Shown here piece by piece: positions 14,947 to 53,621 of a stretch of 64,000 bases of DNA. The position numbers and the translations under genes are program-made. Every line of letters starts with the position of its first letter. The stretch's first letter is position 1. The stretch lies in assembly GCF_055900595.2 (NCBI RefSeq), contig NZ_CM148325.1. One strand, 5' to 3'. The notes below the pieces were generated by a model. That model worked only from the letters and a program-made list of their open reading frames with translations, had not been told where the DNA came from and searched no databases.

Positions 14947-14979
14947 GCGCCAGATAAGAGGCGCGCGGGTGATGTGCCA

Positions 14980-15135
<156 letters not shown>

Positions 15136-15149
15136 GGCACTACCTGGCT

Positions 15150-26214: not shown

Positions 26215-27378
26215 ATGTCTGTAATTAAGATGACCGATCTGGATCTTGCTGGGAAACGTGTATTTATCCGTGCGGATCTGAACGTACCAGTAAAAGACGG
26301 GAAAGTAACCAGCGACGCGCGTATCCGTGCTTCTCTGCCGACCATCGAACTGGCCCTGAAACAAGGCGCGAAAGTGATGGTAACTTCCCACCTGGGTCGT
26401 CCTACCGAAGGCGAGTACAACGAAGAATTCTCTCTGCTGCCGGTTGTTAACTACCTGAAAGACAAACTGTCTAACCCGGTTCGTCTGGTTAAAGATTACC
26501 TCGACGGCGTTGACGTTGCTGAAGGTGAACTGGTTGTTCTGGAAAACGTTCGCTTCAACAAAGGCGAGAAGAAAGACGACGAAACCCTGTCCAAAAAATA
26601 TGCTGCACTGTGTGACGTGTTCGTAATGGACGCATTCGGTACTGCTCACCGCGCGCAGGCTTCTACTCACGGTATCGGTAAATTCGCTGATGTTGCGTGC
26701 GCAGGCCCGCTGCTGGCAGCTGAACTGGACGCGCTGGGTAAAGCACTGAAAGAACCTGCTCGCCCGATGGTGGCTATCGTTGGTGGTTCTAAAGTATCTA
26801 CCAAACTGACCGTTCTGGATTCCCTGTCCAAAATCGCTGACCAGCTGATCGTGGGTGGTGGTATCGCTAACACCTTTATCGCGGCACAAGGCCACGATGT
26901 GGGTAAATCCCTGTACGAAGCTGACCTGGTTGACGAAGCAAAACGTCTGCTGACCACCTGCAACATTCCGGTTCCGTCTGACGTTCGCGTAGCAACTGAG
27001 TTCTCTGAAACTGCACCGGCTACCCTGAAATCTGTTAACGATGTGAAAGCTGACGAGCAGATCCTGGATATCGGCGATGCTTCTGCGCAGGAACTGGCTG
27101 AAATCCTGAAGAATGCGAAAACCATTCTGTGGAACGGCCCGGTTGGCGTGTTCGAATTCCCGAACTTCCGCAAAGGTACTGAAATCGTGGCTAACGCTAT
27201 CGCAGACAGCGAAGCGTTCTCCATCGCTGGTGGCGGTGACACTCTGGCAGCAATCGACCTGTTCGGCATTGCTGACAAAATCTCCTACATCTCCACTGGC
27301 GGCGGCGCATTCCTCGAATTCGTGGAAGGTAAAGTACTGCCTGCAGTAGCGATGCTCGAAGAGCGCGCTAAGAAGTAA
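26215..27378 (+). CDS. pgk: phosphoglycerate kinase (387 aa)
   Basis: Track ORF trimmed 21 codons to [25 protein letters not shown]... Confidence 0.96.
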
Positions 27379-27440
27379 AAAATCACAGGGCAGGGAAACC
27401 TGCCCTTGTTGCAGCGCGCTTTTAGAGCACGCATTTTTTC

Positions 27441-27566
27441 ATACTCTAAATAATTCGAGTTGCAGGAAGGCGACAAGAGAGTGAATCCCCAGGAGCTTAC
27501 ATAAGTAAGTGACTGGGGTGAGCGAACGCAGACGCAGCACATGCAACTTGAAGTATGACGAGTATA
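27441..27566 (+). repeat. ERIC (intergenic repeat unit) element
   Basis: Contains gtgaatccccaggagcttacat and aagtaagtgactggggtgagcg, the two sequences targeted by the standard ERIC primers; near-identical inverted copy at 39383-39507. Confidence 0.85.
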
Positions 27567-27592
27567 AGGCCCGACGATACAGGACAAGAGAC

Positions 27593-28672
27593 ATGTCTAA
27601 GATTTTTGATTTCGTAAAACCTGGCGTAATCACTGGTGATGACGTACAGAAAGTTTTCCAGGTAGCAAAAGAAAACAACTTCGCACTGCCAGCAGTAAAC
27701 TGCGTCGGTACTGACTCCATCAACGCCGTACTGGAAACCGCGGCTAAAGTTAAAGCGCCGGTTATCGTTCAGTTCTCCAACGGTGGTGCTTCCTTTATCG
27801 CTGGTAAAGGCGTGAAATCTGACGTTCCGCAGGGTGCTGCTATCCTGGGTGCGATCTCTGGTGCGCATCACGTTCACCAGATGGCTGAACACTATGGTGT
27901 TCCAGTGATCCTGCACACCGACCACTGCGCGAAAAAACTGCTGCCGTGGATCGACGGTCTGCTGGACGCGGGTGAAAAACACTTCGCAGCTACCGGTAAG
28001 CCGTTGTTCTCTTCTCACATGATCGACCTGTCTGAAGAATCTCTGCAAGAGAACATCGAAATCTGCTCTAAATACCTGGAGCGTATGTCCAAAATCGGCA
28101 TGACTCTGGAAATCGAACTGGGTTGCACCGGTGGTGAAGAAGACGGCGTGGACAACAGCCACATGGACGCTTCTGCACTGTACACCCAGCCGGAAGACGT
28201 TGATTACGCATACACCGAGCTGAGCAAAATCAGCCCGCGCTTCACCATCGCAGCGTCCTTCGGTAACGTACACGGCGTATACAAGCCGGGTAACGTTGTT
28301 CTGACTCCGACCATCCTGCGTGACTCTCAGGAATATGTTTCTAAGAAACACAACCTGCCGCACAACAGCCTGAACTTCGTATTCCACGGCGGTTCCGGTT
28401 CTACTGCTCAGGAAATCAAAGACTCCGTAAGCTACGGCGTAGTGAAAATGAACATCGATACCGATACCCAATGGGCAACCTGGGAAGGTGTTCTGAACTA
28501 CTACAAAGCGAACGAAGCTTATCTGCAGGGTCAGTTGGGCAACCCGAAAGGCGAAGATCAGCCGAACAAGAAATACTACGATCCGCGCGTATGGCTGCGT
28601 GCCGGTCAGACTTCGATGATCGCTCGTCTGGAAAAAGCATTCCAGGAACTGAACGCGATCGACGTTCTGTAA
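27593..28672 (+). CDS. fbaA: class II fructose-bisphosphate aldolase (359 aa)
   Basis: Track ORF trimmed 28 codons to MSKIFDFVKPGVITGDDVQKVF... Confidence 0.96.
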   Translation: MSKIFDFVKPGVITGDDVQKVFQVAKENNFALPAVNCVGTDSINAVLETAAKVKAPVIVQFSNGGASFIAGKGVKSDVPQGAAILGAISGAHHVHQMAEHYGVPVILHTDHCAKKLLPWIDGLLDAGEKHFAATGKPLFSSHMIDLSEESLQENIEICSKYLERMSKIGMTLEIELGCTGGEEDGVDNSHMDASALYTQPEDVDYAYTELSKISPRFTIAASFGNVHGVYKPGNVVLTPTILRDSQEYVSKKHNLPHNSLNFVFHGGSGSTAQEIKDSVSYGVVKMNIDTDTQWATWEGVLNYYKANEAYLQGQLGNPKGEDQPNKKYYDPRVWLRAGQTSMIARLEKAFQELNAIDVL

Positions 28673-28696
28673 GATATTCCTTTCTGCTTATCTCAA

Positions 28697-28720
28697 GGCC
28701 CGCTCTGCGGGTCTTTTTTT
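28697..28720 (+). terminator. fbaA rho-independent terminator
   Basis: ggcccgctctgcgggtc followed by ttttttt. Confidence 0.65.
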
Positions 28721-28730
28721 CGCCAAAAGA

Positions 28731-28845
28731 AAAAATGCCTGATGCGCTACGCTTATCAGGCCTACACGTATCCTGCAATATACTGAATTTACAGGCTTTT
28801 GTAGGTCTGGTAAGGCGTTAAAGCCGCATCCAGTATGACAAATCG
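28731..28845. repeat. REP/BIME units
   Basis: gcctgatgcgctacgcttatcaggcctac and inverted gtaggtctggtaaggcgttaaagccgcatcc. Confidence 0.75.
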
Positions 28846-28864
28846 CACATTGCTATCTGTCTGA

Positions 28865-28887
28865 GGCCCGCTCTGCGGATCTTTTTT
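28865..28887 (+). terminator. second, near-identical copy of the fbaA terminator hairpin
   Basis: ggcccgctctgcggatc followed by tttttt on the far side of the REP cluster. Confidence 0.5.
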
Positions 28888-29029
28888 CACCAAAAGCAAG
28901 GTGATGCAGATGAGAAATCTGTGATCTATTTGGCAAAATTATGCTTTATTGTTTACCCTTGTCAGACTGCCCGTCATAAGGCGGCGGAGTGTATTTCTCC
29001 ATTTTGAGTCAGTTGAAAAGGAATATTGA

Positions 29030-29890
<861 letters not shown>

Positions 29891-30028
29891 TCAACGCTGA
29901 GGCCAGATAATACTCTCTGGCCTCTCTCTTATTAGTTTTTCTGATTGCCAATTAATATTATCAATTTCCGCTAATAACAATCCCGCGATATAGTCTCTGC
30001 ATCAGATACTTAATTCGGAATATCCAAC

Positions 30029-30664
30029 GTGTTTTCTTATTACTTTCAAGGTCTTGCCCTTGGGGCGGCTATGATCCTACCGCTCGGTCCACAAAATGCT
30101 TTTGTGATGAATCAGGGCATACGTCGTCAGTACCACATTATGATTGCCTTACTTTGTGCTATCAGCGATTTGGTCCTGATTTGCGCCGGGATTTTTGGTG
30201 GCAGTGCGTTATTGATGCAGTCGCCGTGGTTGCTTGCGCTGGTCACCTGGGGCGGCGTAGCCTTCTTGCTGTGGTATGGTTATGGCGCTTTTAAAACAGC
30301 AATGAGCAGTAATATTGAGTTAGCCAGTGCCGAAGTCATGAAGCAAGGCAGATGGAAAATTATCGCCACCATGCTGGCAGTGACCTGGCTGAATCCGCAT
30401 GTTTACCTGGATACTTTTGTTGTACTGGGCAGCCTTGGTGGGCAGCTTGACGTCGAACCAAAACGTTGGTTTGCGCTCGGGACAATTAGCGCCTCTTTCC
30501 TCTGGTTCTTTGGTCTGGCTCTTCTCGCAGCCTGGCTGGCACCGCGTCTGCGTACGGCAAAAGCACAGCGCATTATCAATCTGGTAGTGGGATGTGTTAT
30601 GTGGTTTATTGCCTTGCAGCTGGCGAGAGACGGTATTGCGCATGCACAAGCCTTGTTCAGTTAG
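30029..30664 (+). CDS. argO: arginine exporter (211 aa)
   Basis: GTG start; [34 protein letters not shown]... LysE-family layout. Confidence 0.9.
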
Positions 30665-30756
30665 GCGCTATCTGATGGAAAAATAAAACAGAGGCGCTAA
30701 GCTTGCCTCCAGAGGTCCTGAATTTTGGGCAAGTCAATTAACACGGAGAGACTAAC

Positions 30757-31497
30757 GTGAAGTTCAAAGTTATCGCCCTGGCGGCATTAATGGGTATTAG
30801 CGGGATGGCAGCGCAGGCTAACGAATTGCCGGATGGACCGCATATTGTCACCTCCGGTACGGCAAGCGTGGATGCGGTGCCAGACATTGCCACTCTTGCG
30901 ATTGAAGTCAACGTGGCCGCGAAGGATGCCGCTACTGCCAAGAAACAGGCGGATGAGCGCGTCGCACAATACATTTCCTTCCTTGAACTCAATCAGATCG
31001 CGAAAAAAGATATCAGCTCAGCGAACTTACGCACCCAGCCAGATTATGATTATCAGGATGGTAAAAGTATCCTGAAAGGCTACCGTGCTGTGAGAACGGT
31101 GGAAGTCACGCTCCGTCAGTTAGACAAACTGAATTCCTTGCTGGATGGTGCGCTGAAGGCGGGTCTTAACGAAATTCGTTCTGTATCGCTGGGCGTGGCG
31201 CAGCCGGATGCCTATAAAGACAAAGCGCGTAAGGCAGCGATTGATAACGCGATTCATCAGGCGCAGGAACTGGCGAACGGCTTTCATCGTAAACTAGGGC
31301 CGGTATATAGCGTGCGCTACCATGTTTCCAACTATCAGCCCAGCCCAATGGTGCGGATGATGAAAGCCGATGCCGCGCCGGTCTCAGCCCAGGAAACTTA
31401 CGAGCAGGCTGCTATTCAGTTTGATGATCAGGTCGATGTGGTCTTCCAGTTAGAACCTGTGGATCAACAACCCGCTAAAACACCTGCCGCACAATAA
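30757..31497 (+). CDS. yggE: DUF541 periplasmic protein YggE (246 aa)
   Basis: GTG start; signal peptide MKFKVIALAALMGISGMAAQA; full-length match. Confidence 0.9.
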   Translation: MKFKVIALAALMGISGMAAQANELPDGPHIVTSGTASVDAVPDIATLAIEVNVAAKDAATAKKQADERVAQYISFLELNQIAKKDISSANLRTQPDYDYQDGKSILKGYRAVRTVEVTLRQLDKLNSLLDGALKAGLNEIRSVSLGVAQPDAYKDKARKAAIDNAIHQAQELANGFHRKLGPVYSVRYHVSNYQPSPMVRMMKADAAPVSAQETYEQAAIQFDDQVDVVFQLEPVDQQPAKTPAAQ

Positions 31498-31664
31498 TAC
31501 TTGTAGCCCGACGTATTGGTCGGGCTAATGCCTTTACCCGATATTGCCTCCTTTTTCTGTAATTTTCTGTAAAACCATGACGTAATCACCTATCTTTGCT
31601 CGCGGTTTCATCAAGGATAGGCTAACTGAAACGGTTAAGCGGACAAGGATGCGGGGGAGCTGGG

Positions 31665-32561
31665 ATGGACATTTTTATTTCGAAAAAGATGCGCAATTTC
31701 ATTTTATTAGCGCAAACTAATAATATTGCCCGGGCGGCAGAAAAAATCCATATGACGGCTTCGCCATTTGGCAAAAGCATTGCCGCGCTGGAAGAACAAA
31801 TTGGCTATACGCTATTTACCCGCAAAGATAATAATATCAGCCTCAATAAAGCCGGGCAGGAACTGTATCAAAAACTGTTCCCGGTTTATCAACGGCTTTC
31901 TGCGATTGATAATGAAATCCATAACTCAGGACGTTGTTCACGAGAAATTGTGATAGGCATAGATAATACTTATCCGACCATTATTTTTGATCAGTTGATT
32001 AGTCTCGGAGATAAGTACGAAGGCGTGACCGCCCAGCCAGTTGAGTTCAGCGAAAACGGCGTTATCGATAATCTTTTTGACCGTCAGTTAGATTTTATAA
32101 TCTCCCCACAGCATGTATCTGCACGAGTTCAGGAACTGGAAAACCTGACTATTAGTGAACTACCACCGCTGCGATTGGGCTTTCTCGTTTCTCGCCGTTA
32201 TGAAGAGCGACAAGAGCAAGAGTTGCTTCAGGAGCTACCCTGGCTACAAATGCGCTTTCAGAACCGGGCCAACTTCGAAGCAATGATTGATGCGAATATG
32301 CGTCCTTGTGGGATCAATCCCACCATTATTTATCGACCTTACAGTTTTATGGCCAAAATCAGCGCCGTGGAGCGCGGACATTTTCTGACGGTGATCCCGC
32401 ATTTTGCCTGGCGACTGGTTAATCCGGCAACGCTGAAATATTTTGATGCGCCGCACAGGCCGATGTATATGCAGGAATATCTTTATTCAATCAGAAATCA
32501 TCGTTATACCGCCACGATGCTTCAGCATATTGCTGAAGATCGTGACGGGACGAGTCATTAA
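31665..32561 (+). CDS. ygfI: LysR-family transcriptional regulator YgfI (298 aa)
   Basis: N-terminal HTH region and LysR substrate-binding domain length; 3' end overlaps the convergent scpC stop by 4 nt. Confidence 0.85.
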   Translation: MDIFISKKMRNFILLAQTNNIARAAEKIHMTASPFGKSIAALEEQIGYTLFTRKDNNISLNKAGQELYQKLFPVYQRLSAIDNEIHNSGRCSREIVIGIDNTYPTIIFDQLISLGDKYEGVTAQPVEFSENGVIDNLFDRQLDFIISPQHVSARVQELENLTISELPPLRLGFLVSRRYEERQEQELLQELPWLQMRFQNRANFEAMIDANMRPCGINPTIIYRPYSFMAKISAVERGHFLTVIPHFAWRLVNPATLKYFDAPHRPMYMQEYLYSIRNHRYTATMLQHIAEDRDGTSH

Positions 32562-34036
32562 CCCAGCATCGAGCCGGTTGCAATTAAATTACGGTGTAAA
32601 TCGAAGACGTGGCTAAGATCGTGGTGAATATGTCCGCCGGGCGCATTTTCCAGATAGCGATGCAGATAATCCCTATACATAGGATGTGCACAATTATCAA
32701 TGATGGTGCGGGCGCGTTGAAGCGGGGAAAGACCACGCAGATCGGCGATCCCTTGTTCGGTGATGATCACTTTGACGCTGTGTTCGCTGTGATCAACATG
32801 GCTGCACATTGGCACGACGGTTGAGATCTTGCCTTCTTTAGCAATCGACGGGGCCATAAAGATCGACAGATACGCGTTGCGTTCAAAATCACCGCTGCCA
32901 CCGATGCCGTTCATCAGATCGACCCCGGCTACGTGCGTTGAGTTGGCATGCCCGTAAATATCAAACTCCAGGCCGACGTTCAGAGCGATGACGCCCAGAC
33001 GACGGATGATTTCCGGGTTATTGGAAATCTCCTGCGGACGCAACACAATGCGGCTGGCAAAGTAATCCATATTGTCGTAAATCTTGCGCAGGGAATCGGC
33101 CGAGATAGTCAGGCTGGAGGCGCTGGCCCCGCTGATTTTGCCCGTTTCCAGTAAATGCACCACCGATTCCTGTAGCACTTCCGAATACATCATGAACGGA
33201 GGAATTTCCGGGTTTTCCCCTAGTCGCGCCATGACTGCATTATTGATATTGCCCACGCCACTTTGCAGCGGCAGAAATTCCGGTGGAATACGCCCATGCG
33301 CCATTTCCTGCAACAAGAACGTGACCACGTTATCGGCAATCTGCTGGCACATGGGATTTTGCTTATCCAGCATATTACCGGCGTCGGGCAAGTTGGTTTC
33401 CACGACGGCGACAATCTTTTTCGGATCGATTTGCACATAGCGGGTACCGACGCGATCCATTGCATGGAAGATCGACACGCTATTGCGCCGCGGTGGCGCG
33501 CCAGGAATCACAATATCCGCCAGTTCTGCAACGCGCGGATCGTGATAGTGATTGAGTTCAATGATCACTTTCTTCGCCCGCAGCAGCCAGGTCGGCGCAT
33601 TACCGATCCCGCTGGTTAACCAGACTCGGCCATCCGGTGCCAGTGCCGATGCTTCAATGACGGCAACATCAATTTCGCCGAAGAAACCGTAATTGACCAT
33701 TTGCGCCACTTCGCTCAAATGCAGGTCAACGAAACTCACCGCGCCCTGATTGATCTTTTTACGTAAACCGGACGATGTTTGATATGGCGCACGCCAGGAA
33801 ACAGCATCGGCGTCAGAAAGTACATCGTCAGCGGCGGCGCTGATTGACGCCCCCGTCAGCAGGCGAATTTGATACGGCTTTTTGGCCTCATGCTGTTCGT
33901 TAGCTCTGCGGGCAATCGCGTTGGGTAGGGCTTTCGGCGAACCCGCCGGGGTAAAGCCGCTAAATGCCACCATGTCGTTATGCTGGATAATTTCTGCCGC
34001 TTCATCGGCGGTCATCCTTGTCCACTGAGTTTCCAT
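32558..34036 (-). CDS. scpC: propionyl-CoA:succinate CoA-transferase (492 aa)
   Basis: Full-length match to ScpC/YgfH. Confidence 0.9.
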   Translation of the reverse strand: METQWTRMTADEAAEIIQHNDMVAFSGFTPAGSPKALPNAIARRANEQHEAKKPYQIRLLTGASISAAADDVLSDADAVSWRAPYQTSSGLRKKINQGAVSFVDLHLSEVAQMVNYGFFGEIDVAVIEASALAPDGRVWLTSGIGNAPTWLLRAKKVIIELNHYHDPRVAELADIVIPGAPPRRNSVSIFHAMDRVGTRYVQIDPKKIVAVVETNLPDAGNMLDKQNPMCQQIADNVVTFLLQEMAHGRIPPEFLPLQSGVGNINNAVMARLGENPEIPPFMMYSEVLQESVVHLLETGKISGASASSLTISADSLRKIYDNMDYFASRIVLRPQEISNNPEIIRRLGVIALNVGLEFDIYGHANSTHVAGVDLMNGIGGSGDFERNAYLSIFMAPSIAKEGKISTVVPMCSHVDHSEHSVKVIITEQGIADLRGLSPLQRARTIIDNCAHPMYRDYLHRYLENAPGGHIHHDLSHVFDLHRNLIATGSMLG

Positions 34037-34059
34037 TTTTACTCCTTCGTTCGCAGGGA

Positions 34060-34845
34060 TTAATGACCAACGAAATTAGGTTTACGTTTTTCGAGGAAAG
34101 CGTTCATCCCTTCCTGGTAATCTTCGCTGTCATAAACCGCGCGGCGCATCCCCTGAATACGTTCAAATTCATCGGAGTTCATGGTGTGCGCTTCGCCCAG
34201 TACACGCAGTTCTTCTTTGATAACGGCAATGGCTAACGGCGCTTTCTCAGAGATGTGGTGCGCCATTTGTAAGGTGAAATCTTCCAGTTCTTCCACTTCC
34301 ACAACATGGTTGAGGATGCCGACAGCCAGCGCGCGCTGGGCTGTGATTGGCGAAGCGGTAAAAATCAGCTCTTTGACAATGTGGAAGCCCGCGTCGCGGG
34401 TCAGGTTGTGAATGCCGACCAGGTTATACGGGACGCCGAGGTTTACAGGCGTCATTGAGAAGGTTGAGGTACTGGCGGCGATGATCAGATCGGAATTCAT
34501 GATCATTTCAAATGCGCCCCCCCAAACACTACCTTCCACCATCGAAATGATCGGTTTCGGGAATTTTTGGATCATGCGGGTGATTTGACGCAACGGATCA
34601 TCATAGGAGAGCGGATCGCGACCGCCAGACGGCAGTTCGTGAATATCGTGACCTGCGGAGAAGACTTTGGATCCACTCGGCGCGCGCAAAATGATACAGC
34701 GAATTTCCGGCCGGTTGAGATCGCTTAATGCCTGCATAAGATCATCAATAAAGACTTTACTTAAGGCATTAAGTTTTCGGCCATAGTTAAACTCAATGAC
34801 CGCCACTTTGTTGATAGTGACAACGTTCACATACTGATAAGACAT
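34060..34845 (-). CDS. scpB: methylmalonyl-CoA decarboxylase, crotonase fold (261 aa)
   Basis: Track ORF trimmed 14 codons to MSYQYVNVVTINKVAVIEF... Confidence 0.9.
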   Translation of the reverse strand: MSYQYVNVVTINKVAVIEFNYGRKLNALSKVFIDDLMQALSDLNRPEIRCIILRAPSGSKVFSAGHDIHELPSGGRDPLSYDDPLRQITRMIQKFPKPIISMVEGSVWGGAFEMIMNSDLIIAASTSTFSMTPVNLGVPYNLVGIHNLTRDAGFHIVKELIFTASPITAQRALAVGILNHVVEVEELEDFTLQMAHHISEKAPLAIAVIKEELRVLGEAHTMNSDEFERIQGMRRAVYDSEDYQEGMNAFLEKRKPNFVGH

Positions 34846-34855
34846 AAAAATTCCT

Positions 34856-35851
34856 TTAATCAAAATATTGCGTCTGGATAAATTCACTGAGCTGTCGCAG
34901 GCCGGTGCGCGGTGAGAGCGTATTGTTTTTGACCGCTAAAAGCGTCTGGCGGTAATAGCGATCGAAATCTTCATTCGCGAACAGGTGATTCAGTACTTCT
35001 TCTTCGGTTTGTTTACGCAGCCATTCCACCGATTGTTGTTGCCGCACTTGCTGTAAACGACCACTGGCAGTTAGCGCGGTTTTGAAGTCGATGATGGCGT
35101 GCCAGATCTCATCGATTCCACGTTTTTCCAGTGCGCTACAAGTCAGAACTCGTGGCTGCCATTCGTCGTATTTACGTCGCAGAATATGCAGGGCACTCTC
35201 GTACATATGCCGGGCAATGGCGACATTGGTATGGTTATCGCCATCGTCTTTGTTGATAACGATCAGATCTGCCACTTCCATCAGCCCCTTTTTAATCCCC
35301 TGCAGATCATCGCCGCCACCGGCAATTTGCAACGAGATAAAACAGTCCACCATGCGGGCGACTTCCGTTTCCGACTGTCCGACGCCAACCGTTTCGACAA
35401 TCACTACGTCATAACCCGCCGCTTCGCATAACAGCATTAATTCCCGCGCTCGCTGACTGGCACCGCCCAGATGGCCGGAGGATGGTACCGGGCGAATAAA
35501 CGCCGCCTCGGCACGCGCCAGGTCATTCATGCGGGTTTTATCTCCGAGAATGCTACCGCCAGTGACCGGGCTGCTGGGATCGACCGCAATAACTGCAACC
35601 TTTAGTCCCTCACGAATCAACAACATGCCAAAGGCTTCAAGAAAGGTACTTTTCCCCGCGCCGGGTGTGCCGGTAACACCCAGTCGCAGGGCGTTACCAC
35701 AGAACGGCATAATGGCATCAAGCAGTTGCGTACTTAGCGCCTGATGACGCGGGTGACGGCTTTCCACCAGCGTCATGGCCTGGGCGAGCGTGGCACGCTC
35801 ACCCTGACGTAAGCGGCGAATACTTTCTGCCAGCGTAGCTTCATTAATCAT
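34856..35851 (-). CDS. argK: MeaB-like G-protein chaperone of methylmalonyl-CoA mutase (331 aa)
   Basis: P-loop GTPGAGKST visible; full length. Confidence 0.9.
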
Positions 35852-37988
35852 GATGCTGGCTTATCAGATTCAGTACGTCGCGCACGCTGTCGAGCATAGG
35901 CGTACCTGGACCATAAATCGCCGCCACGCCGCGCTCCTGCAGGAAGGCGTAATCCTGCGGCGGAATGACGCCACCCGCGACCACGCAGATATCTTCGCGT
36001 CCCCATTTTTTCAGCGCTTCGACCAGTTCCGGGATCAGCGTTTTATGACCGGCAGCCAGTGAAGATGCGCCCACTACGTGAACGTCGTTTTCTACTGCCA
36101 GGCGGGCGATCTCTTCAGGTGTAGAGAACATCGGGCTTAAATCTACGTCGAAACCGAGATCGGAATAGGCGCTGGCGATCACTTTCGCGCCGCGATCGTG
36201 CCCATCCTGGCCCATTTTGGCGATCAGAATGCGCGGGCGACGACCATTGTCGGCAAGGAACTGCTCCGTTTGCGCAACAATGGCATCGAACTCGGAGGCC
36301 GATTTCTCAGACTGATGATAGCTTTGCGCAATCACGCCGGTAACACACTGGCTTGGCACCAGATAACGGTCGAAAGCGGCTTCCAGCGCATCGGAAATTT
36401 CACCCAGGGTGGCGCGAACGCGAGCGGCATTAACAGCGGCAGCCAGCAGGTTTTCGTTATGCTGTGCGGCGTGAGTCAGGGCGTTCAACGCGGCGGTTAC
36501 GGCGGCATCATCACGGGTGGCGCGAATGCGTTCCAGCGAAGCAATTTGCTCGTTACGCACCATCACGTTGTCGATCTCAAGTACATCGGTTTCGTCTTCG
36601 TGATCCAGTTTGTACTTGTTGACACCAACGATGACACGTTTTCCCTGATCGATCAGCGACTGTTCACGCGCTGAGGCTTCTTCGATCATTCGTTTTGGCA
36701 GACCTGCTTCGATCGCTTTCGCCATACCTCCGGCTTCGTTGATCTGTTGGATAATGGCTCTGGCTTGTTTGACGATTTGATCGGTCAGCGATTCAACGTA
36801 ATAGGATCCGGCCAGTGGATCGACGGTGCGGCAGAGTTCTGATTCTTCCTGAATGATGATCTGGGTATTGCGGGCAATGCGTGCTGAGAAATCGGTAGGC
36901 AAACCAAGCGCTTCATCAAAGGCGTTGGTATGCAGTGACTGAGTACCGCCCAGCGTTGCAGCCAGTGCTTCAATGGTGGTGCGGATAACGTTGTTATACG
37001 GATCCTGTTCAGTCAGGCTCCAGCCTGAGGTCTGGCAGTGGGTACGCAGCGCCAGTGATTTCGGATCCTGTGCGCCAAATCCACTGACCGCTTCGCTCCA
37101 TAAATAACGTGCCGCACGCAACATGGCGACGTTCATAAACAGATCCATGCCAATGCCGAAGAAAAACGACAGGCGAGGAGCGAAGTCATCAATTTTCAGC
37201 CCAGCGGAGATTGCTGCTTTGATGTACTCAATCCCATCAGCGAGCGTAAATGCTACCTGCTGCACGCAGTTGGCACCCGCTTCACCCATATGGTAACCGC
37301 TGATACTGATGGTATTAAATCGCGGCATGTTGCCGGAACACCAGGCGATGATGTCTGCGATAATACGCATTGACGGTTTTGGCGGGTAAATATAGGTGTT
37401 GCGGCAAAGATACTCTTTGAGGATATCGTTCTGAATGGTGCCTGTCAGTTTATCGGGCGTAACTCCTTGCTCTTCTGCGGCGACGATATAAAACGCCAGT
37501 ACGGGTAACACTGCGCCATTCATGGTCATCGAAACCGACATTTTATCCAGCGGGATCTGGTCGAACAGGACTTTCATATCTTCCACGGTGTCGATAGCAA
37601 CGCCCGCTTTGCCGACGTCGCCCGCCACGCGCGGGTTATCGGAGTCGTAGCCACGGTGGGTGGCAAGGTCAAACGCAACGGAAAGACCTTTTTGCCCGGC
37701 GGCCAGGTTACGGCGATAAAAAGCGTTAGACTCTTTTGCTGTCGAGAAACCGGCATACTGACGGATAGTCCACGGTTGGGCGGTATACATAGTGGCACGC
37801 GGGCCACGAACGTAGGGTGGCAAACCAGGAAGGGTACCAGTCACTTCCAGATTATCGAGATCGGCTTCAGTATACAGCGGCTTGATGGCGATCCCTTCTG
37901 CGGTTTGCTGAACCAGCGAGTCGACAGTTTTCTCCCGACGACTCAATTCCTTGTTGGCAATCTGTTGCCACTCCTGCACGTTAGACAT
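35844..37988 (-). CDS. scpA: B12-dependent methylmalonyl-CoA mutase, 'sleeping beauty mutase' (714 aa)
   Basis: Track ORF trimmed 7 codons to MSNVQEWQQ...; 8-nt overlap with argK. Confidence 0.92.
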
Positions 37989-38191
37989 TATTTGCTCCAT
38001 AAAACGCAATCAAAATGAGGGTATTTGCGCTTACGGTGAGCTTTTTACGTGGGTTTGTCGCCAGCAAAAAAAATGCATCCAGACGTCGTTTTTTGCCGCC
38101 TGAGATTTGTCTATTTTGTGATGTGATTCAAGGAATACAAAAAGAACTGGAGGTGATGCCTGGTATGTATTACCAGGCATTATTTGATGGA

Positions 38192-39085
38192 TTATTCCTG
38201 ACGAAGAACTTTGTGACCATAATCGAGCAACGCATCAGTGACTTTACGCATCATGCGGCTTTCAGGAGCAAAGCGGTGCCAGTAGAGCATCCGGCGTTGA
38301 AATAGCCCTGGCGTTAAGTCAATCAGTTCGCCGCTGGCCAGCTCTTTCTCGATTTGCAGGTGCGGGATCATACAGCAGGTGGTGCCCTGACGAGCAAGTT
38401 GCACGAATGCTTCCGAAGAATTAACGATATGGCACGGTACGCTGCCTGGGGGCAGATCGAAGTTTTGCTGCAAAAAGGCCTGGTGCATATCGTCAAGATG
38501 GTCAAAGGCGACCACAGGTGCTTTCAATAATGCCGAACGCGTTACGCCGTTAGGGAAATATTTTTCGGCAAACGGTTTTGAGCTGACGAACAGATAGTCA
38601 AGCGCACCGAGCTTATCGACAAGACAACTCGGCAGCGCCTGATGTTGAATACTCACCGCGCCGACCACTTCGCCGCGGCGCAGACGTTCCTGAGTGCGGG
38701 TTTCATCTTCTACCTGCAAGTTGAGGCGGATAGGCGAATCAGCTAACACAGGAGCCAGCGCCGGAAGCAACCACGTCGCCAGACTGTCAGCGTTGACCGC
38801 CAGTGAAAGCAGCAGCGGAGTTGAACCGGTTTGTTCATCGCCCAGCCACTCTTCTTCCAGTAACTCCACCTGGCGTAGCAGTGCCAGCAGTTTTTGCCCT
38901 TGTTCCGTCGGGCGCGGCGGTACGGTACGCACCAACAGCGGCTGCCCGAACATATTTTCCAGTTGCTTAATGCGCTGTGAGACGGCTGATTGTGTAATGC
39001 ACAGCTTTTGTGCCGCGCGCTCAAATCCTCGTTCACGTATCACCGCATCCAGTGCCTGTAATGTTCTGTAGTCCGGGCGTTTCAT
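38192..39085 (-). CDS. argP: LysR-family regulator ArgP/IciA (297 aa)
   Basis: Track ORF trimmed 22 codons to [28 protein letters not shown]... Confidence 0.92.
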
Positions 39086-39382
39086 TGCTGTTGTCTGCTC
39101 CTGGTAAATGCTTTTTCCTGCACTATGACACAATTTTGCGTCAGGTTGCATATACCGAAGCCGTCGGCGGGTACATTTGTATCAGTGGTTAAACACGCAG
39201 CTTAAAAGATCAGGGATTTGCGCTATTGCATTTCGCTCAGCGAGTTCGCGCCCTGGAGCGGCATACCCAGACCTTTATATGCTTTATTTGCCGGGCGAAA
39301 GGGGATGCCCGCCATTGCGCGATATTTTATGGATGAGTTAACCACGCGGCTTGCCAACGGGGTCTGAATCGCTTTTTTTGTA

Positions 39383-39507
39383 TATACTCGTCATACTTCA
39401 AGTTGCATGTGCTGTGTCTGCGTTCGCTCACCCCAGTCACTTACTTCTGTAAGCTCCTGGGGATTCACTCTCTTGTCGCCTTCCTGCAACTCGAATTATT
39501 TAGAGTA
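39383..39507 (-). repeat. ERIC element, inverted relative to the copy at 27441-27566
   Basis: Reverse complement of the pgk-fbaA ERIC with only a couple of mismatches by eye. Confidence 0.85.
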
Positions 39508-39545
39508 TAATGCGAGTGAAATTTCATACCACAGGCGAAACGATC

Positions 39546-40205
39546 ATGACGCAGGATGAATTGAAAAAAGCAGTAGGATGGGCGGCACTTCAGTATGTTC
39601 AGCCCGGCACCATTGTTGGTGTAGGTACAGGTTCCACCGCCGCACACTTTATTGATGCGCTCGGCACGATGAAAGGCCAGATTGAAGGGGCCGTTTCCAG
39701 TTCGGATGCGTCCACTGAAAAACTGAAAAGCCTCGGCATTCACGTTTTTGATCTCAACGAAGTCGACAGCCTTGGCATCTACGTTGATGGCGCAGATGAA
39801 ATCAACGGCCACATGCAAATGATCAAAGGCGGCGGCGCGGCGCTGACCCGTGAAAAAATCATTGCTTCGGTTGCGGAAAAATTTATCTGTATTGCAGACG
39901 CTTCTAAGCAGGTTGATATTCTGGGCAAATTCCCGCTGCCAGTAGAAGTTATCCCGATGGCACGTAGTGCAGTGGCGCGCCAGCTGGTGAAACTGGGCGG
40001 TCGTCCGGAATACCGTCAGGGCGTGGTGACCGATAACGGCAACGTGATCCTCGACGTCCACGGCATGGAAATCCTTGACCCGATAGCGATGGAAAACGCC
40101 ATAAATGCGATTCCGGGCGTGGTGACTGTTGGCTTGTTTGCTAACCGTGGCGCGGACGTTGCGCTGATTGGCACACCTGACGGTGTCAAAACCATTGTGA
40201 AATGA
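39546..40205 (+). CDS. rpiA: ribose-5-phosphate isomerase A (219 aa)
   Basis: Track ORF trimmed 12 codons to [35 protein letters not shown]... Confidence 0.95.
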
Positions 40206-41744: not shown

Positions 41745-41756
41745 GTGCACAGAAAA

Positions 41757-42460
41757 CCCCCAGCTAGGCTGGGGGTTCCGGAAAGCTTTCAGCTTTGAGC
41801 CAGTTATTAAAACCCCTTTTGATTTGTTAAAACACCTTGCGGTCTGGCAACTGCAAGTGTCAAACAAGAAATCAAAAGGGGGTCCCAATGGGGGACGAAA
41901 AGAGCTTAGCGCACACCCGCTGGAACTGTAAATATCACATAGTTTTTGCGCCGAAATACCGAAGACTGGCGTTTTACGGAGAGAAGCGTAGGGCGATAGG
42001 CAGTATTTTGAGAAAGCTGTGTGAGTGGAAAAGCGTACGGATTCTGGAAGCAGAGTGCTGCGCAGATCATATCCATATGCTTGTGGAAATCCCACCCAAA
42101 ATGAGCGTATCCGGCTTTATGGGATATCTGAAAGGGAAAAGCAGTCTGATGCTTTACGAGCAGTTTGGGGATTTGAAATTCAAATACAGAAACAGGGAGT
42201 TCTGGTGCCGAGGGTACTATGTCGATACGGTGGGTAAGAACACGGCGAAGATACAGGACTACATAAAGCACCAGCTTGAAGAGGATAAAATGGGGGAGCA
42301 GTTATCGATTCCATATCCGGGCAGCCCGTTTACGGGCCGTAAGTAACGAAGTTGAATGCAAATGTCAGATCGTATGCGCCTGTTAGGGCGCGGCTGGTAA
42401 CAGAGCCTTACAGGCGCATTTGAAAAACCTCCGGCTATGCCGGAGGATATTTATTATCCC
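41757..42460 (+). mobile_element. IS200-like (IS200/IS605 family) element; boundaries approximate to about 30 bp
   Basis: Left-end palindrome cccccagctaggctggggg, a stem-loop covering the tnpA RBS, a 152-aa Y1/HUH transposase, and right-end hairpins (cctccggctatgccggagg). No terminal inverted repeats, as expected for this family. Confidence 0.75.
41888..42346 (+). CDS. tnpA: IS200-type Y1 (HUH) transposase TnpA (152 aa)
   Basis: Track ORF trimmed to MGDEKSLAHTRWNCKYHIVFAPKYRR...; HUH motif HIHMLV and catalytic-Tyr region conserved. Confidence 0.92.
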   Translation: MGDEKSLAHTRWNCKYHIVFAPKYRRLAFYGEKRRAIGSILRKLCEWKSVRILEAECCADHIHMLVEIPPKMSVSGFMGYLKGKSSLMLYEQFGDLKFKYRNREFWCRGYYVDTVGKNTAKIQDYIKHQLEEDKMGEQLSIPYPGSPFTGRK

Positions 42461-42599: not shown

Positions 42600-42740
42600 A
42601 ACGGTAAAGCCCTCACCGAAGCGAGGGCTTGAAGGAGAAGGGTTATGATGCGACTCGTCATCATACTGATTGTACTGTTACTGATAAGTTTGCCAGCTTA
42701 TTAACAGTCAGTCACAGGGGAGGAGTCATCCTCCCTTACC
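42600..42740 (-). ncRNA. sibC: SibC antisense sRNA (antitoxin of ibsC); ends approximate
   Basis: Region antisense to ibsC ending in hairpin aagccctcgcttcggtgagggctt on the minus strand; position between serA and ygfA matches K-12 sibC. Confidence 0.45.
42645..42704 (+). CDS. ibsC: type I toxin IbsC, 19-aa hydrophobic peptide
   Basis: atgatgcgactcgtcatcatactgattgtactgttactgataagtttgccagcttattaa = MMRLVIILIVLLLISLPAY*, matching the Ibs toxin family as recalled. Too short for the ORF track. Confidence 0.65.
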   Translation: MMRLVIILIVLLLISLPAY

Positions 42741-42804
42741 CTTACTCACTAAATTAGGTTAAAGAATCAACGATGTCAATCAGGGCGATGCAGGTGTGTC
42801 GCCC

Positions 42805-43427: not shown

Positions 43428-43610
43428 GGAATCTCCGAGATGCCGCCGCAGGCTGTAACCCTTGAACCCTTGGTTCAAGGTGAATGTGTCGTCACAGTTT
43501 TAAGGCTTCTCGGACGGACCGAGCATGCTCACCAACCGCGGAGCGCCACATTCTTGTGGTATGAAATATCGGCTCAGGGGACTGGCCCGCTTGCGAACAT
43601 CTCAGAGAAA
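43428..43610 (-). ncRNA. ssrS: 6S RNA
   Basis: Minus strand reads atttctctgagatgttcgcaagcgggccagtcccctgagccgatatttcataccacaagaatgtggcgctccgcggttggtgagcatgctcggtccgtccgagaagcc..., matching E. coli 6S RNA; located between zapA and ygfA. Confidence 0.88.
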
Positions 43611-43652
43611 TTTTGTCTTCACGGTTACTCTACCACAGTAAACCGAAAAGTG

Positions 43653-53468: not shown

Positions 53469-53487
53469 GACACTGATGTCAAACTCA

Positions 53488-53598
53488 ACATTGCCTGATG
53501 CACCTCGTTTATCAGGCCTACATAGTCTGTGCAATGTATTGAATTTGCACGATCTTGTAGGCTGGATAAGGCGTTCACGCCGCATCCGGCATAATAAA
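53488..53598. repeat. REP/BIME units
   Basis: gcctgatgcacctcgtttatcaggcctaca and inverted gtaggctggataaggcgttcacgccgcatccggc. Confidence 0.75.
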
Positions 53599-53621
53599 AG
53601 CACTTTGTCATCAATAATTTG

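Follow-up and report, generated by a model that had tools for sequence, protein, structure and literature searches.

Two near-identical ERIC elements form a 12-kb inverted pair in Escherichia coli: one nearly fixed in the pgk-fbaA spacer, the other a rare insertion upstream of rpiA

Introduction

Two almost identical repeats lie in opposite orientation about 12 kb apart in the window (the whole stretch of DNA that was analysed, 64,000 nucleotides), which raises the question of what these repeats are, why they are so alike and whether the segment between them can be inverted. A sequence-only reading had described them as ERIC units with both standard primer targets, located in the pgk-fbaA and argP-rpiA spacers, and had proposed that they could mediate inversion of the fbaA to argP segment and that their similarity reflects recent spread or gene conversion. 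The explanation that we favour, and hold with good confidence, is that these are two ERICs, of which copy 1 is old and fixed and copy 2 is a derived insertion with a single origin, and that no inversion switch is involved. ERIC, also termed IRU or RU-1, is the subject of Sharples and Lloyd 1990, Hulton, Higgins and Sharp 1991 and Wilson and Sharp 2006, as cited in PMC2229807 and PMC10969869. The features discussed below are collected in Table 1.

Table 1. Features at and around the two ERIC copies (positions are those of the window).
Feature	Position	Strand	Location or context	Evidence or role
pgk	26215..27378	+	gene upstream of copy 1	
ERIC copy 1	27441..27566	+	pgk-fbaA intercistronic spacer	repeat arm, primer targets, hairpin
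inter-arm segment	27567..39382	.	11,816 nt	ORF list
fbaA	27593..28672	+	gene downstream of copy 1	relies on promoters upstream of spacer
argP	38192..39085	-	divergent from rpiA	
yqfE remnant (LysR-family gene)	39227..39368	+	copy 2 starts 14 nt past stop	alignments
ERIC copy 2	39383..39508	-	yqfE/argP-rpiA spacer	repeat arm; rare polymorphic insertion
119 nt present in filled allele only, GTATATAATGCG	39387..39505	.		filled vs empty alignment
TATAAT	39506..39511	+	34 nt upstream of rpiA ATG	putative rpiA -10 box
rpiA	39546..40205	+	gene downstream of copy 2	

The repeat pair consists of two ERICs

The repeat search returned an inverted pair with arms of 126 nt that are 98% complementary and separated by 11,816 nt. 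Compared directly, the two copies share 124/126 identities, and the mismatches are at 27502, in the central loop, where copy 1 has T and copy 2 has G, and at 27534, where they have G and A, respectively. The flanks of the arms are unrelated and the similarity ends exactly at the arm borders. The ERIC1R primer target was matched at 27481-27502 in copy 1 with no mismatches and at 39447-39468 in copy 2 with one, and the ERIC2 target was matched perfectly in each (27503-27524 and 39425-39446), such that both copies have the adjacent targets that make up the conserved central inverted repeat of an ERIC; the number of matches expected by chance, from shuffled sequence, was 0. Neither the repeat search nor the primer-target search found a third ERIC copy within the window. 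The identity and arrangement of the pair were therefore read correctly from the sequence alone, and the ORF coordinates confirm its location in the two spacers.

Other ERIC hallmarks are also present. Both arms are imperfect palindromes of the expected length (~127 bp) that are predicted to fold into one long hairpin, with energies of -48.8 and -45.7 kcal/mol in one orientation and -37.8 and -35.9 kcal/mol in the other (z -4.4 to -7.9 against shuffles). Both are extragenic and are near a gene end or inside a transcription unit, and the element is dispersed, megablast detecting a median of 5 places in each E. coli genome. Copy 2 has TA termini and a target-site duplication, as seen from filled and empty alleles, and shows presence/absence polymorphism with low sequence diversity; the flanks of copy 1 read CA...TA. 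Neither arm matched Rfam at the gathering threshold, and Rfam is without an ERIC family. Both arms are ERICs (IRUs), the ~127-bp non-autonomous, MITE-like palindromic repeat of enterobacteria, and the kind of element and the kind of polymorphism are both already known.

Copy 1 in the pgk-fbaA spacer

Copy 1 occupies most of the 214-nt spacer, from 62 nt past the pgk stop to 26 nt short of the fbaA ATG. Of 5,426 complete E. coli genomes, 5,414 have it together with both flanks, and it is an old, fixed resident of this spacer. In the operon sense its RNA is predicted to form a hairpin of -48.8 kcal/mol (z -7.9 against shuffles), which persists when the entire spacer is folded. No transcription start site (TSS) was detected in the 214-nt spacer in published work, and the only mapped promoters of fbaA, those of epd/pgk, lie upstream of it (PMC2759082). 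As the spacer is without a TSS and the hairpin is kept in the whole-spacer fold, we infer that copy 1 is co-transcribed within the epd-pgk-fbaA transcript. In Yersinia, ERICs in the 3'-UTR alter mRNA stability in a manner that depends on their orientation (PMC2229807, PMC10969869), and by analogy copy 1 may change how stable the pgk and fbaA segments of the mRNA are relative to each other. The sole match of the terminator and promoter scan around both copies and an empty allele was a terminator-like hairpin 3' of pgk. Literature searches on this spacer returned the statement on the TSS alone, and nothing about an ERIC there.

Copy 2 is a rare, derived insertion

Occupancy of the argP-rpiA spacer, which the sequence-only reading had suggested comparing with that of pgk-fbaA, is far lower: copy 2 with both flanks was present in 66/5,426 complete E. 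coli genomes (1.2%). The site is empty in K-12, O121, C439 and APEC, and because it is empty in K-12 this occupancy may be uncatalogued so far. It is also empty in a sister Escherichia lineage (L014, ~92-93% identical), in which the 3' end of yqfE is present; this was the single close Escherichia outgroup among the matches listed in the RpiA search of genome contigs. No ERIC was found within 2.5 kb of rpiA in 80 loci of other species, among the matches listed, and copy 2 is absent from 79 enterobacterial species besides the sister lineage. Copy 2 is thus a derived insertion, as its site is empty in both the sister lineage and the other species.

Derived does not however mean very recent, and the earlier suggestion of recent spread is upheld only in the first respect, because copy 2 is carried on at least four structural backgrounds and its locus has three length forms (126, 197 and 275 bp). 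The longer forms, in other strains, share this ERIC backbone and add either one hairpin-rich internal module (71 nt) or two (71 and ~79 nt), and the 79-nt module recurs at the matching internal site of the yehL-yehK ERIC; against Rfam the long form gave only a sub-threshold match, to AaHKsRNA22. The gene yqfE is intact in strains SCU-172 and VCSW7, both of which carry copy 2. Filled and empty alleles occur together on each of the O121-type, K-12/B2-type and island-type spacer haplotypes, and the rpiA haplotype is identical in E2348/69 (filled) and an APEC strain (empty). A single insertion then requires later recombination or repeated loss, and copy 2, which persists at ~1% on several haplotypes, may have been moved between strains by homologous recombination, lost again by precise excision, or both.

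Whether copy 2 was instead ancestral to E. coli and was excised precisely from almost all lineages, by palindrome slippage between the TA repeats, has to be considered here. Precise deletion is known to act on long palindromes that have short direct repeats at their borders, and copy 2 is found on the structurally most ancestral haplotype, with an intact yqfE and three further genes, in addition to three deleted haplotypes that each have empty alleles too. The site is however filled in only 9/247 island-bearing genomes, the sister lineage is empty and the other genera lack the element, among the matches listed, and the diversity of copy 2 is very low, with one change from copy 1. We regard an ancestral copy 2 as improbable, and favour the derived insertion.

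Anatomy of the insertion and the rpiA upstream region

Copy 2 lies 37 nt before the rpiA ATG, downstream of a yqfE remnant which has lost its start codon and has an 89-nt internal deletion relative to K-12. On alignment of filled and empty alleles, the 119-nt unique part is bracketed by a duplicated TATA (39383-39386 and 39506-39509), giving a net gain of 123 bp over the empty site, and the target is TA-rich. A duplicated target of TA, or of at most TATA, would fit this junction; ERICs are listed as having both TA ends and a duplication of the target site (PMC2229807). Filled and empty E. coli alleles do not differ in the TATAAT before rpiA, and TATAATGCG is kept at the same distance from the ATG in Salmonella, Citrobacter, Kluyvera, Enterobacter, Klebsiella and Pseudescherichia. 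Judged from this sequence conservation, the motif is probably the -10 box of rpiA, which the end of the ERIC regenerates. Copy 2 would have inserted just past the yqfE stop, into a TA-rich target at the upstream edge of this box, and the TATA end of the element itself would have restored it; rpiA probably stays expressed, because the box is rebuilt in this way. Neither rpiA nor fbaA appears in the supplements of a TSS-profiling paper.

The insertion could also have been co-opted for the regulation of rpiA, by supplying a new -35 and upstream region or a hairpin in the 5'- or 3'-UTR of rpiA or yqfE. Everything upstream of the conserved TATAAT is replaced by the insertion, its distance from the yqfE stop is typical of a 3'-UTR ERIC, as in the Yersinia cases above, and the rpiA-sense strand has a predicted fold of -35.9 kcal/mol (z -4.4). 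Against this, the frequency is 1.2% with no sign of a sweep, and the consensus scan found no sigma-70-like promoter around either copy or on an empty allele, a result that carries no information on the effect on rpiA. We regard co-option as decidedly improbable.

No inverted form among complete genomes

The inter-arm segment carries fbaA, mscS, argO, yggE and srsR on the plus strand and scpC, scpB, meaB/argK, scpA and argP on the minus strand, with the yqfE remnant also inside, and the gene order and orientation match K-12 and all genomes retrieved. A RecA-dependent inversion of this 11.8-kb segment through the ERIC pair would give two chromosomal isoforms, as had been proposed. RecA recombination in E. 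coli needs less homology than the 126 bp at 98% identity that the arms offer, so a rare inversion, also within a subpopulation, is physically possible. A synthetic inverted junction was built from pgk, the ERIC and the reverse-complemented argP side, and was searched for with a match threshold of >=80% coverage. There were no full-length matches in any of the 5,426 complete genomes, including all 66 with both arms, whereas the native junctions were recovered by the same method in 5,414 and 66 genomes. Every retrieved genome with copy 2 was collinear, and a single orientation was seen among the 5,426 assemblies. No recombinase or transposase gene is present in or beside the segment, which holds metabolic, regulatory and transport genes only. 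Moreover, fbaA is essential on standard media, so the inverted product should be counter-selected. Inversion would cut fbaA off from the epd/pgk promoters, the spacer being without a TSS (PMC2759082). Inversion was therefore rejected at the assembly level and is exceedingly unlikely as an account of this locus; the ERIC pair does not act as an inversion switch.

Similarity of the copies and the origin of copy 2

The copies are 98-99% identical to each other and ~90% identical to the yehL-yehK ERIC, and ongoing gene conversion (concerted evolution) could maintain such near-identity. Alignment of 8 copy-1 and 10 copy-2 alleles, with seven genomes holding both, showed otherwise. The central position is T in all eight copy-1 alleles and G in all ten copy-2 alleles, and none of the variable positions (six in copy 1, three in copy 2) has a counterpart in the second copy of its genome, so that no shared derived variants were found within the seven genomes with both copies. 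Copy 1 also has the same sequence in genomes without copy 2, such as K-12. Gene conversion, the other process offered in the earlier reading, is unsupported by this fixed T/G difference and by strain-specific SNPs that are never common to both copies; it was rejected, and we consider it very unlikely.

The best genome-wide BLAST match to copy 2 was the pgk-fbaA copy in K-12, O157:H7 and strain 2/0, with 125/126 identities in the first two, whereas the yehL-yehK ERIC, an independent copy, is only ~90% identical; the closest paralog is thus defined by the best BLAST place in these three genomes and by this one other ERIC. Leaving the internal modules aside, the ten copy-2 alleles differ by 0-1 positions, and the sole metagenome contig with the central-G variant again has it at yqfE-rpiA. 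The central G in 10/10 alleles and in this contig points to a single origin of copy 2 in E. coli. Its source would most likely be the pgk-fbaA copy 12 kb away, or an identical master, after which one diagnostic T-to-G change would have been gained. The likeness of the two copies would reflect the youth of copy 2 compared with other ERICs, and not sequence exchange.

A more specific possibility, which we put forward as speculative and rather doubtful, is that copy 2 records comparatively recent mobility, in which an inverted 12-kb hop from pgk-fbaA to the rpiA promoter was followed by gain or loss of the 71- and 79-nt modules. If true, mobilisation of ERICs and their internal modules continues in some lineages, and the 66 filled genomes with their close empty relatives are a natural panel for finding the mobilising enzyme.

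Comparison with known systems

Two known MITE-like repeats can thus present as a striking, near-perfect inverted repeat in E. coli without any rearrangement, and in ERIC-PCR or assembly of strains with both arms a 12-kb inverted pair is to be expected. In the argP-rpiA spacer, ERIC is cleanly polymorphic between filled and empty alleles; the target is defined, there is a likely donor and the element comes in three lengths. The insertion hits a conserved putative rpiA -10 box and restores it. The locus is a convenient marker should ERIC mobility be studied experimentally.

As in IS- and rrn-mediated inversions and the fim and hin switches, a segment is flanked by two inverted homologous sequences, but here the arms have a length of only 126 bp, a recombinase is absent, the second orientation was found in 0/5,426 genomes and an essential operon would be broken by inversion. 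ERIC variants with ~70-bp insertions at fixed internal sites were reportedly described in 1997 by Sharp and by Cromie, Collins and Leach. The argP-rpiA alleles of other strains, with their 71- and ~79-nt modules, resemble these, whereas the two copies in the window are of the plain 126-bp form. TA-duplicating MITEs, such as the IS630-Spn1-linked RUP of S. pneumoniae and Correia/NEMIS (PMC2229807), are likewise small, with terminal inverted repeats and TA ends, and copy 2 has a TA-compatible duplication and sits beside a promoter or in a UTR as they do. They differ in that ERIC has no known partner transposase, with none evident near either copy, and in that the duplication at copy 2 is ambiguous between TA and TATA. 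The closest likeness is to ERIC/IRU itself: both copies are intergenic imperfect palindromes of 126-127 bp with the ERIC1R/ERIC2 central repeat, of an element with multiple genomic copies. Copy 1 is in a probably co-transcribed position, and copy 2 has TA termini, target duplication and a spacer occupancy that varies by strain with little sequence diversity where filled. From this family they show no difference in kind.

The inverted ERIC pair and its gene context

The repeat search returned a single strong inverted repeat in the window, composed of two 126-nt arms that are 98% complementary and separated by 11,816 nt (copy 1 and copy 2, see table). Direct comparison of the arms gave 124 identities over 126 positions, with mismatches at 27502 (T in copy 1 and G in copy 2, at the palindrome tip) and 27534 (G and A respectively), and the similarity stops abruptly at either end. 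Both arms carry the ERIC1R and ERIC2 primer targets side by side; the ERIC2 target is exact in each, and ERIC1R is exact in copy 1 but differs at one position in copy 2; shuffled sequence is expected to give zero matches. A third copy was not detected in the 64-kb window by the primer-target search. Each arm is predicted to fold into one long hairpin (-48.8 and -45.7 kcal/mol in one orientation, -37.8 and -35.9 in the other; z-scores -4.4 to -7.9). The description of two near-identical inverted ERIC units in these spacers, made in the sequence-only reading, is accurate.

The window is from E. coli and retains the K-12 gene order, read on the opposite strand: pgk, fbaA, mscS, argO, yggE and srsR on the plus strand, then scpC, scpB, meaB, scpA and argP on the minus strand, followed by rpiA and serA on the plus strand. 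The yqfE of the window is a decayed LysR gene.

Locations of the ERIC copies and other features in the window, in loci fetched from other genomes (L numbers) and on plasmids
Feature	Location	Details
Copy 1	27441-27566 (+)	214-nt pgk-fbaA spacer; 62 nt past pgk stop, 26 nt ahead of fbaA ATG
Copy 2	39383-39508 (-)	divergent argP-rpiA spacer; start 14 nt past yqfE stop, end 37 nt ahead of rpiA ATG
GC-rich hairpin	27387-27406	immediately after pgk stop
argP-rpiA spacer	39086-39545; L011:9755-13045; L012:9977-13045	scar of lost gene island
pgk-fbaA region	26800-28200	>=99% identity in 26 records
argP-rpiA region	38742-40150	>=99% identity in 4 records
REP/BIME-type repeats	2160-2203; 14972-15140; 28724-28843; 53480-53599	in spacers, including just 3' of fbaA
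STnc490	41755-41878	after serA; Rfam, gathering level
Sib antitoxin RNA (with ibsC)	42629-42779	Rfam, gathering level
6S RNA	43428-43611	Rfam, gathering level
ES036/CssrF	53514-53556	overlaps REP element; Rfam, gathering level
Two-module ERIC	L005:13061-13335 (E2348/69); L012:13061-13335 (VCSW7)	homologous to window 39383-39508; 71- and ~79-nt modules
One-module ERIC	L006:13061-13257 (06-00048)	homologous to window 39383-39508; 71-nt module
Deleted scp region	L005:9669-11577 (E2348/69)	pseudogene fragments remain
Aggregatibacter sRNA 22 match	L005:13068-13188 (-)	29.1 bits, gathering 39.8, E 0.0014
Plasmid ERIC-like matches (examples)	NZ_AP038229.1 122927-123013; NZ_CP114132.1 28478-28511

The island whose scar occupies the argP-rpiA spacer is present in 247 of 5,426 complete E. 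coli genomes and encodes an intact yqfE LysR regulator, an FMN-dependent NADH-azoreductase, a DUF1471 protein and a ferredoxin-reductase-family gene. The yqfE remnant is 231 nt in K-12; the window lacks a further 89 nt, and strain E686 another 24 nt. The hairpin after pgk was scored as terminator-like on the minus strand, where TTTTTT comes after it; on the plus strand it lies ahead of copy 1 and has a weak T tail. The REP/BIME-type repeats (GCCGGATGCGGCGT-like palindromes) correspond to families D1-D3 and pair I2 of the repeat search.

The window lineage is thinly sampled, and its best-matching strain is E686 in the pgk-fbaA region and N96 in the argP-rpiA region. These unlike best matches and the few records of high identity suggest that the lineage is a mosaic of recombination tracts.

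Occupancy of the two sites across genomes

As the sequence-only reading had proposed, occupancy of both spacers was compared across strains, using each ERIC copy with 60 nt of each flank as the query and counting matches at >=80% coverage. Copy 1 with both flanks was found in 5,414 of the 5,426 genomes and copy 2 in 66, so the two have very different population histories. The empty argP-rpiA site (without copy 2) reads GTATATAATGCG in K-12, an O121 strain, C439 and an APEC strain; when filled, the site becomes GTATATA-[119 nt]-TATAATGCG, which is a net 123 bp longer and has TA (up to TATA) duplicated. The literature describes such a duplication both for ERIC and for other MITEs that target TA (PMC2229807).

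An outgroup scan with RpiA, one genome per species, covered at least 80 loci, and no ERIC lay within 2.5 kb of rpiA among the 80 loci listed. One of these loci, L014, comes from a genome labelled E. coli but has only ~92-93% identity to the window; it keeps the yqfE 3' end, and its site is empty. The empty state is therefore ancestral, and copy 2 is a derived insertion within E. coli.

Origin and age of copy 2

Copy 2 was compared genome-wide with three genomes that lack it (K-12, O157:H7 E32511 and strain 2/0); in each, the pgk-fbaA ERIC matched it best (125/126 in the first two). The yehL-yehK ERIC, by contrast, has only about 90% identity to copy 2. The central position is G in 10/10 copy-2 alleles and T in 8/8 copy-1 alleles, and a 41-nt probe for the G variant matched one metagenome contig, also at yqfE-rpiA. 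Together these point to a single insertion, probably derived from the pgk-fbaA copy or an identical master, with one substitution afterwards.

Copy 2 is carried on at least four different structural backgrounds: intact yqfE with the three-gene island (SCU-172, VCSW7), the K-12-type remnant (E2348/69), the 45-nt-deleted remnant (EC42405, CFSAN018748, Z1323HEC0462, 06-00048) and the 89-nt-deleted remnant (the window, N96, E686). Empty alleles are found on three of these as well, only 9 of the 247 island-bearing genomes are filled, and the same rpiA haplotype is shared by E2348/69, which is filled, and an APEC strain, which is empty. To account for this distribution, copy 2 must have spread by homologous recombination, been repeatedly and precisely lost, or both. 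The suggestion of recent spread holds in that copy 2 is derived, rare and closest to the pgk-fbaA copy, but given the several backgrounds, the empty alleles on these and three length forms, the insertion is not brand new.

The argP-rpiA ERIC is 126, 197 or 275 bp long on one backbone, the longer forms having one or two internal hairpin-rich modules. The 71- and 79-nt modules are alike, sharing a CATCCATG hairpin loop and a terminal stem, CAAAT(T/C)CG...CG(A/G)ATTTG, with paired changes between them. The 79-nt module is present in 649 of 5,426 genomes at about one copy per genome, and in an APEC strain sits inside the yehL-yehK ERIC at the identical internal position. A sub-threshold Rfam match of a long form to Aggregatibacter sRNA 22 is probably mere hairpin similarity. 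About 20 ERIC-like matches were on plasmids rather than chromosomes.

Inversion and gene conversion between the copies

Inversion of the fbaA-argP segment, which the sequence-only reading had raised, was searched for with a synthetic junction joining the pgk 3' end and ERIC to the reverse complement of the argP side. At >=80% coverage it was found in 0 of 5,426 genomes, the relevant denominator being the 66 with both arms; the same method recovered the native junctions in 5,414 and 66 genomes. The larger loci fetched from two-arm genomes were all collinear with the window, and the segment between the arms and the genes next to it include no recombinase. An inversion switch is thus unsupported, and rare RecA-mediated events between 126-bp repeats are physically possible. 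Class II aldolase is essential under standard conditions, and the inverted form would place fbaA back-to-back with rpiA, cut off from the epd and pgk promoters; it should therefore be strongly counter-selected. A 5' RACE study found no start site in the pgk-fbaA spacer and concluded that fbaA relies on promoters lying upstream (PMC2759082). In E2348/69 the scpA-meaB-scpB-scpC region is mostly deleted, so that the arms are only about 7.3 kb apart, not 11.8 kb.

Gene conversion had been offered as another source of the similarity. Across seven genomes with both copies, none of the six variable positions in copy 1 or three in copy 2 is mirrored in the partner, the central T/G difference is fixed between loci, and the copy 1 sequence is unchanged in genomes without copy 2. 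Concerted evolution was rejected on these grounds, and the likeness of the copies reflects recent common origin, not homogenisation.

Possible roles and comparison with known elements

A putative rpiA -10 box, the TATAATGCG hexamer, lies 34 nt ahead of the rpiA start codon; its conservation extends from Salmonella to Klebsiella and Pseudescherichia. Copy 2 inserted at its upstream edge, and the ERIC terminus (…GAGTATA) restores it exactly, so filled and empty alleles differ solely upstream of the putative box. A consensus scanner called no promoter in either rpiA allele. Copy 2 is a low-frequency insertion allele and would leave the predicted rpiA core promoter formally intact. Of mild interest is the rpiA-promoter polymorphism itself, in which filled and empty alleles are clearly resolved and a probable donor lies nearby.

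Copy 1 is most likely carried along passively and transcribed within the epd-pgk-fbaA mRNA, and its hairpin is retained when the whole pgk-fbaA spacer is folded. In Yersinia, ERICs affect how stable adjoining mRNA segments are, depending on ERIC orientation and in connection with RNase E (PMC2229807, PMC10969869); by analogy, copy 1 could conceivably tune the pgk:fbaA ratio.

The pair lacks the tested hallmarks of both concerted evolution and an inversion switch, and the idea of a rearrangement has no support. Strain-variable ERIC loci had already been documented. The inverted pair is real and belongs to a known class of element: all testable defining features of ERIC were found, namely size, palindrome, central repeat, extragenic position and multiple copies, as well as terminal TA with a duplication and an occupancy that varies among strains, with little sequence diversity.
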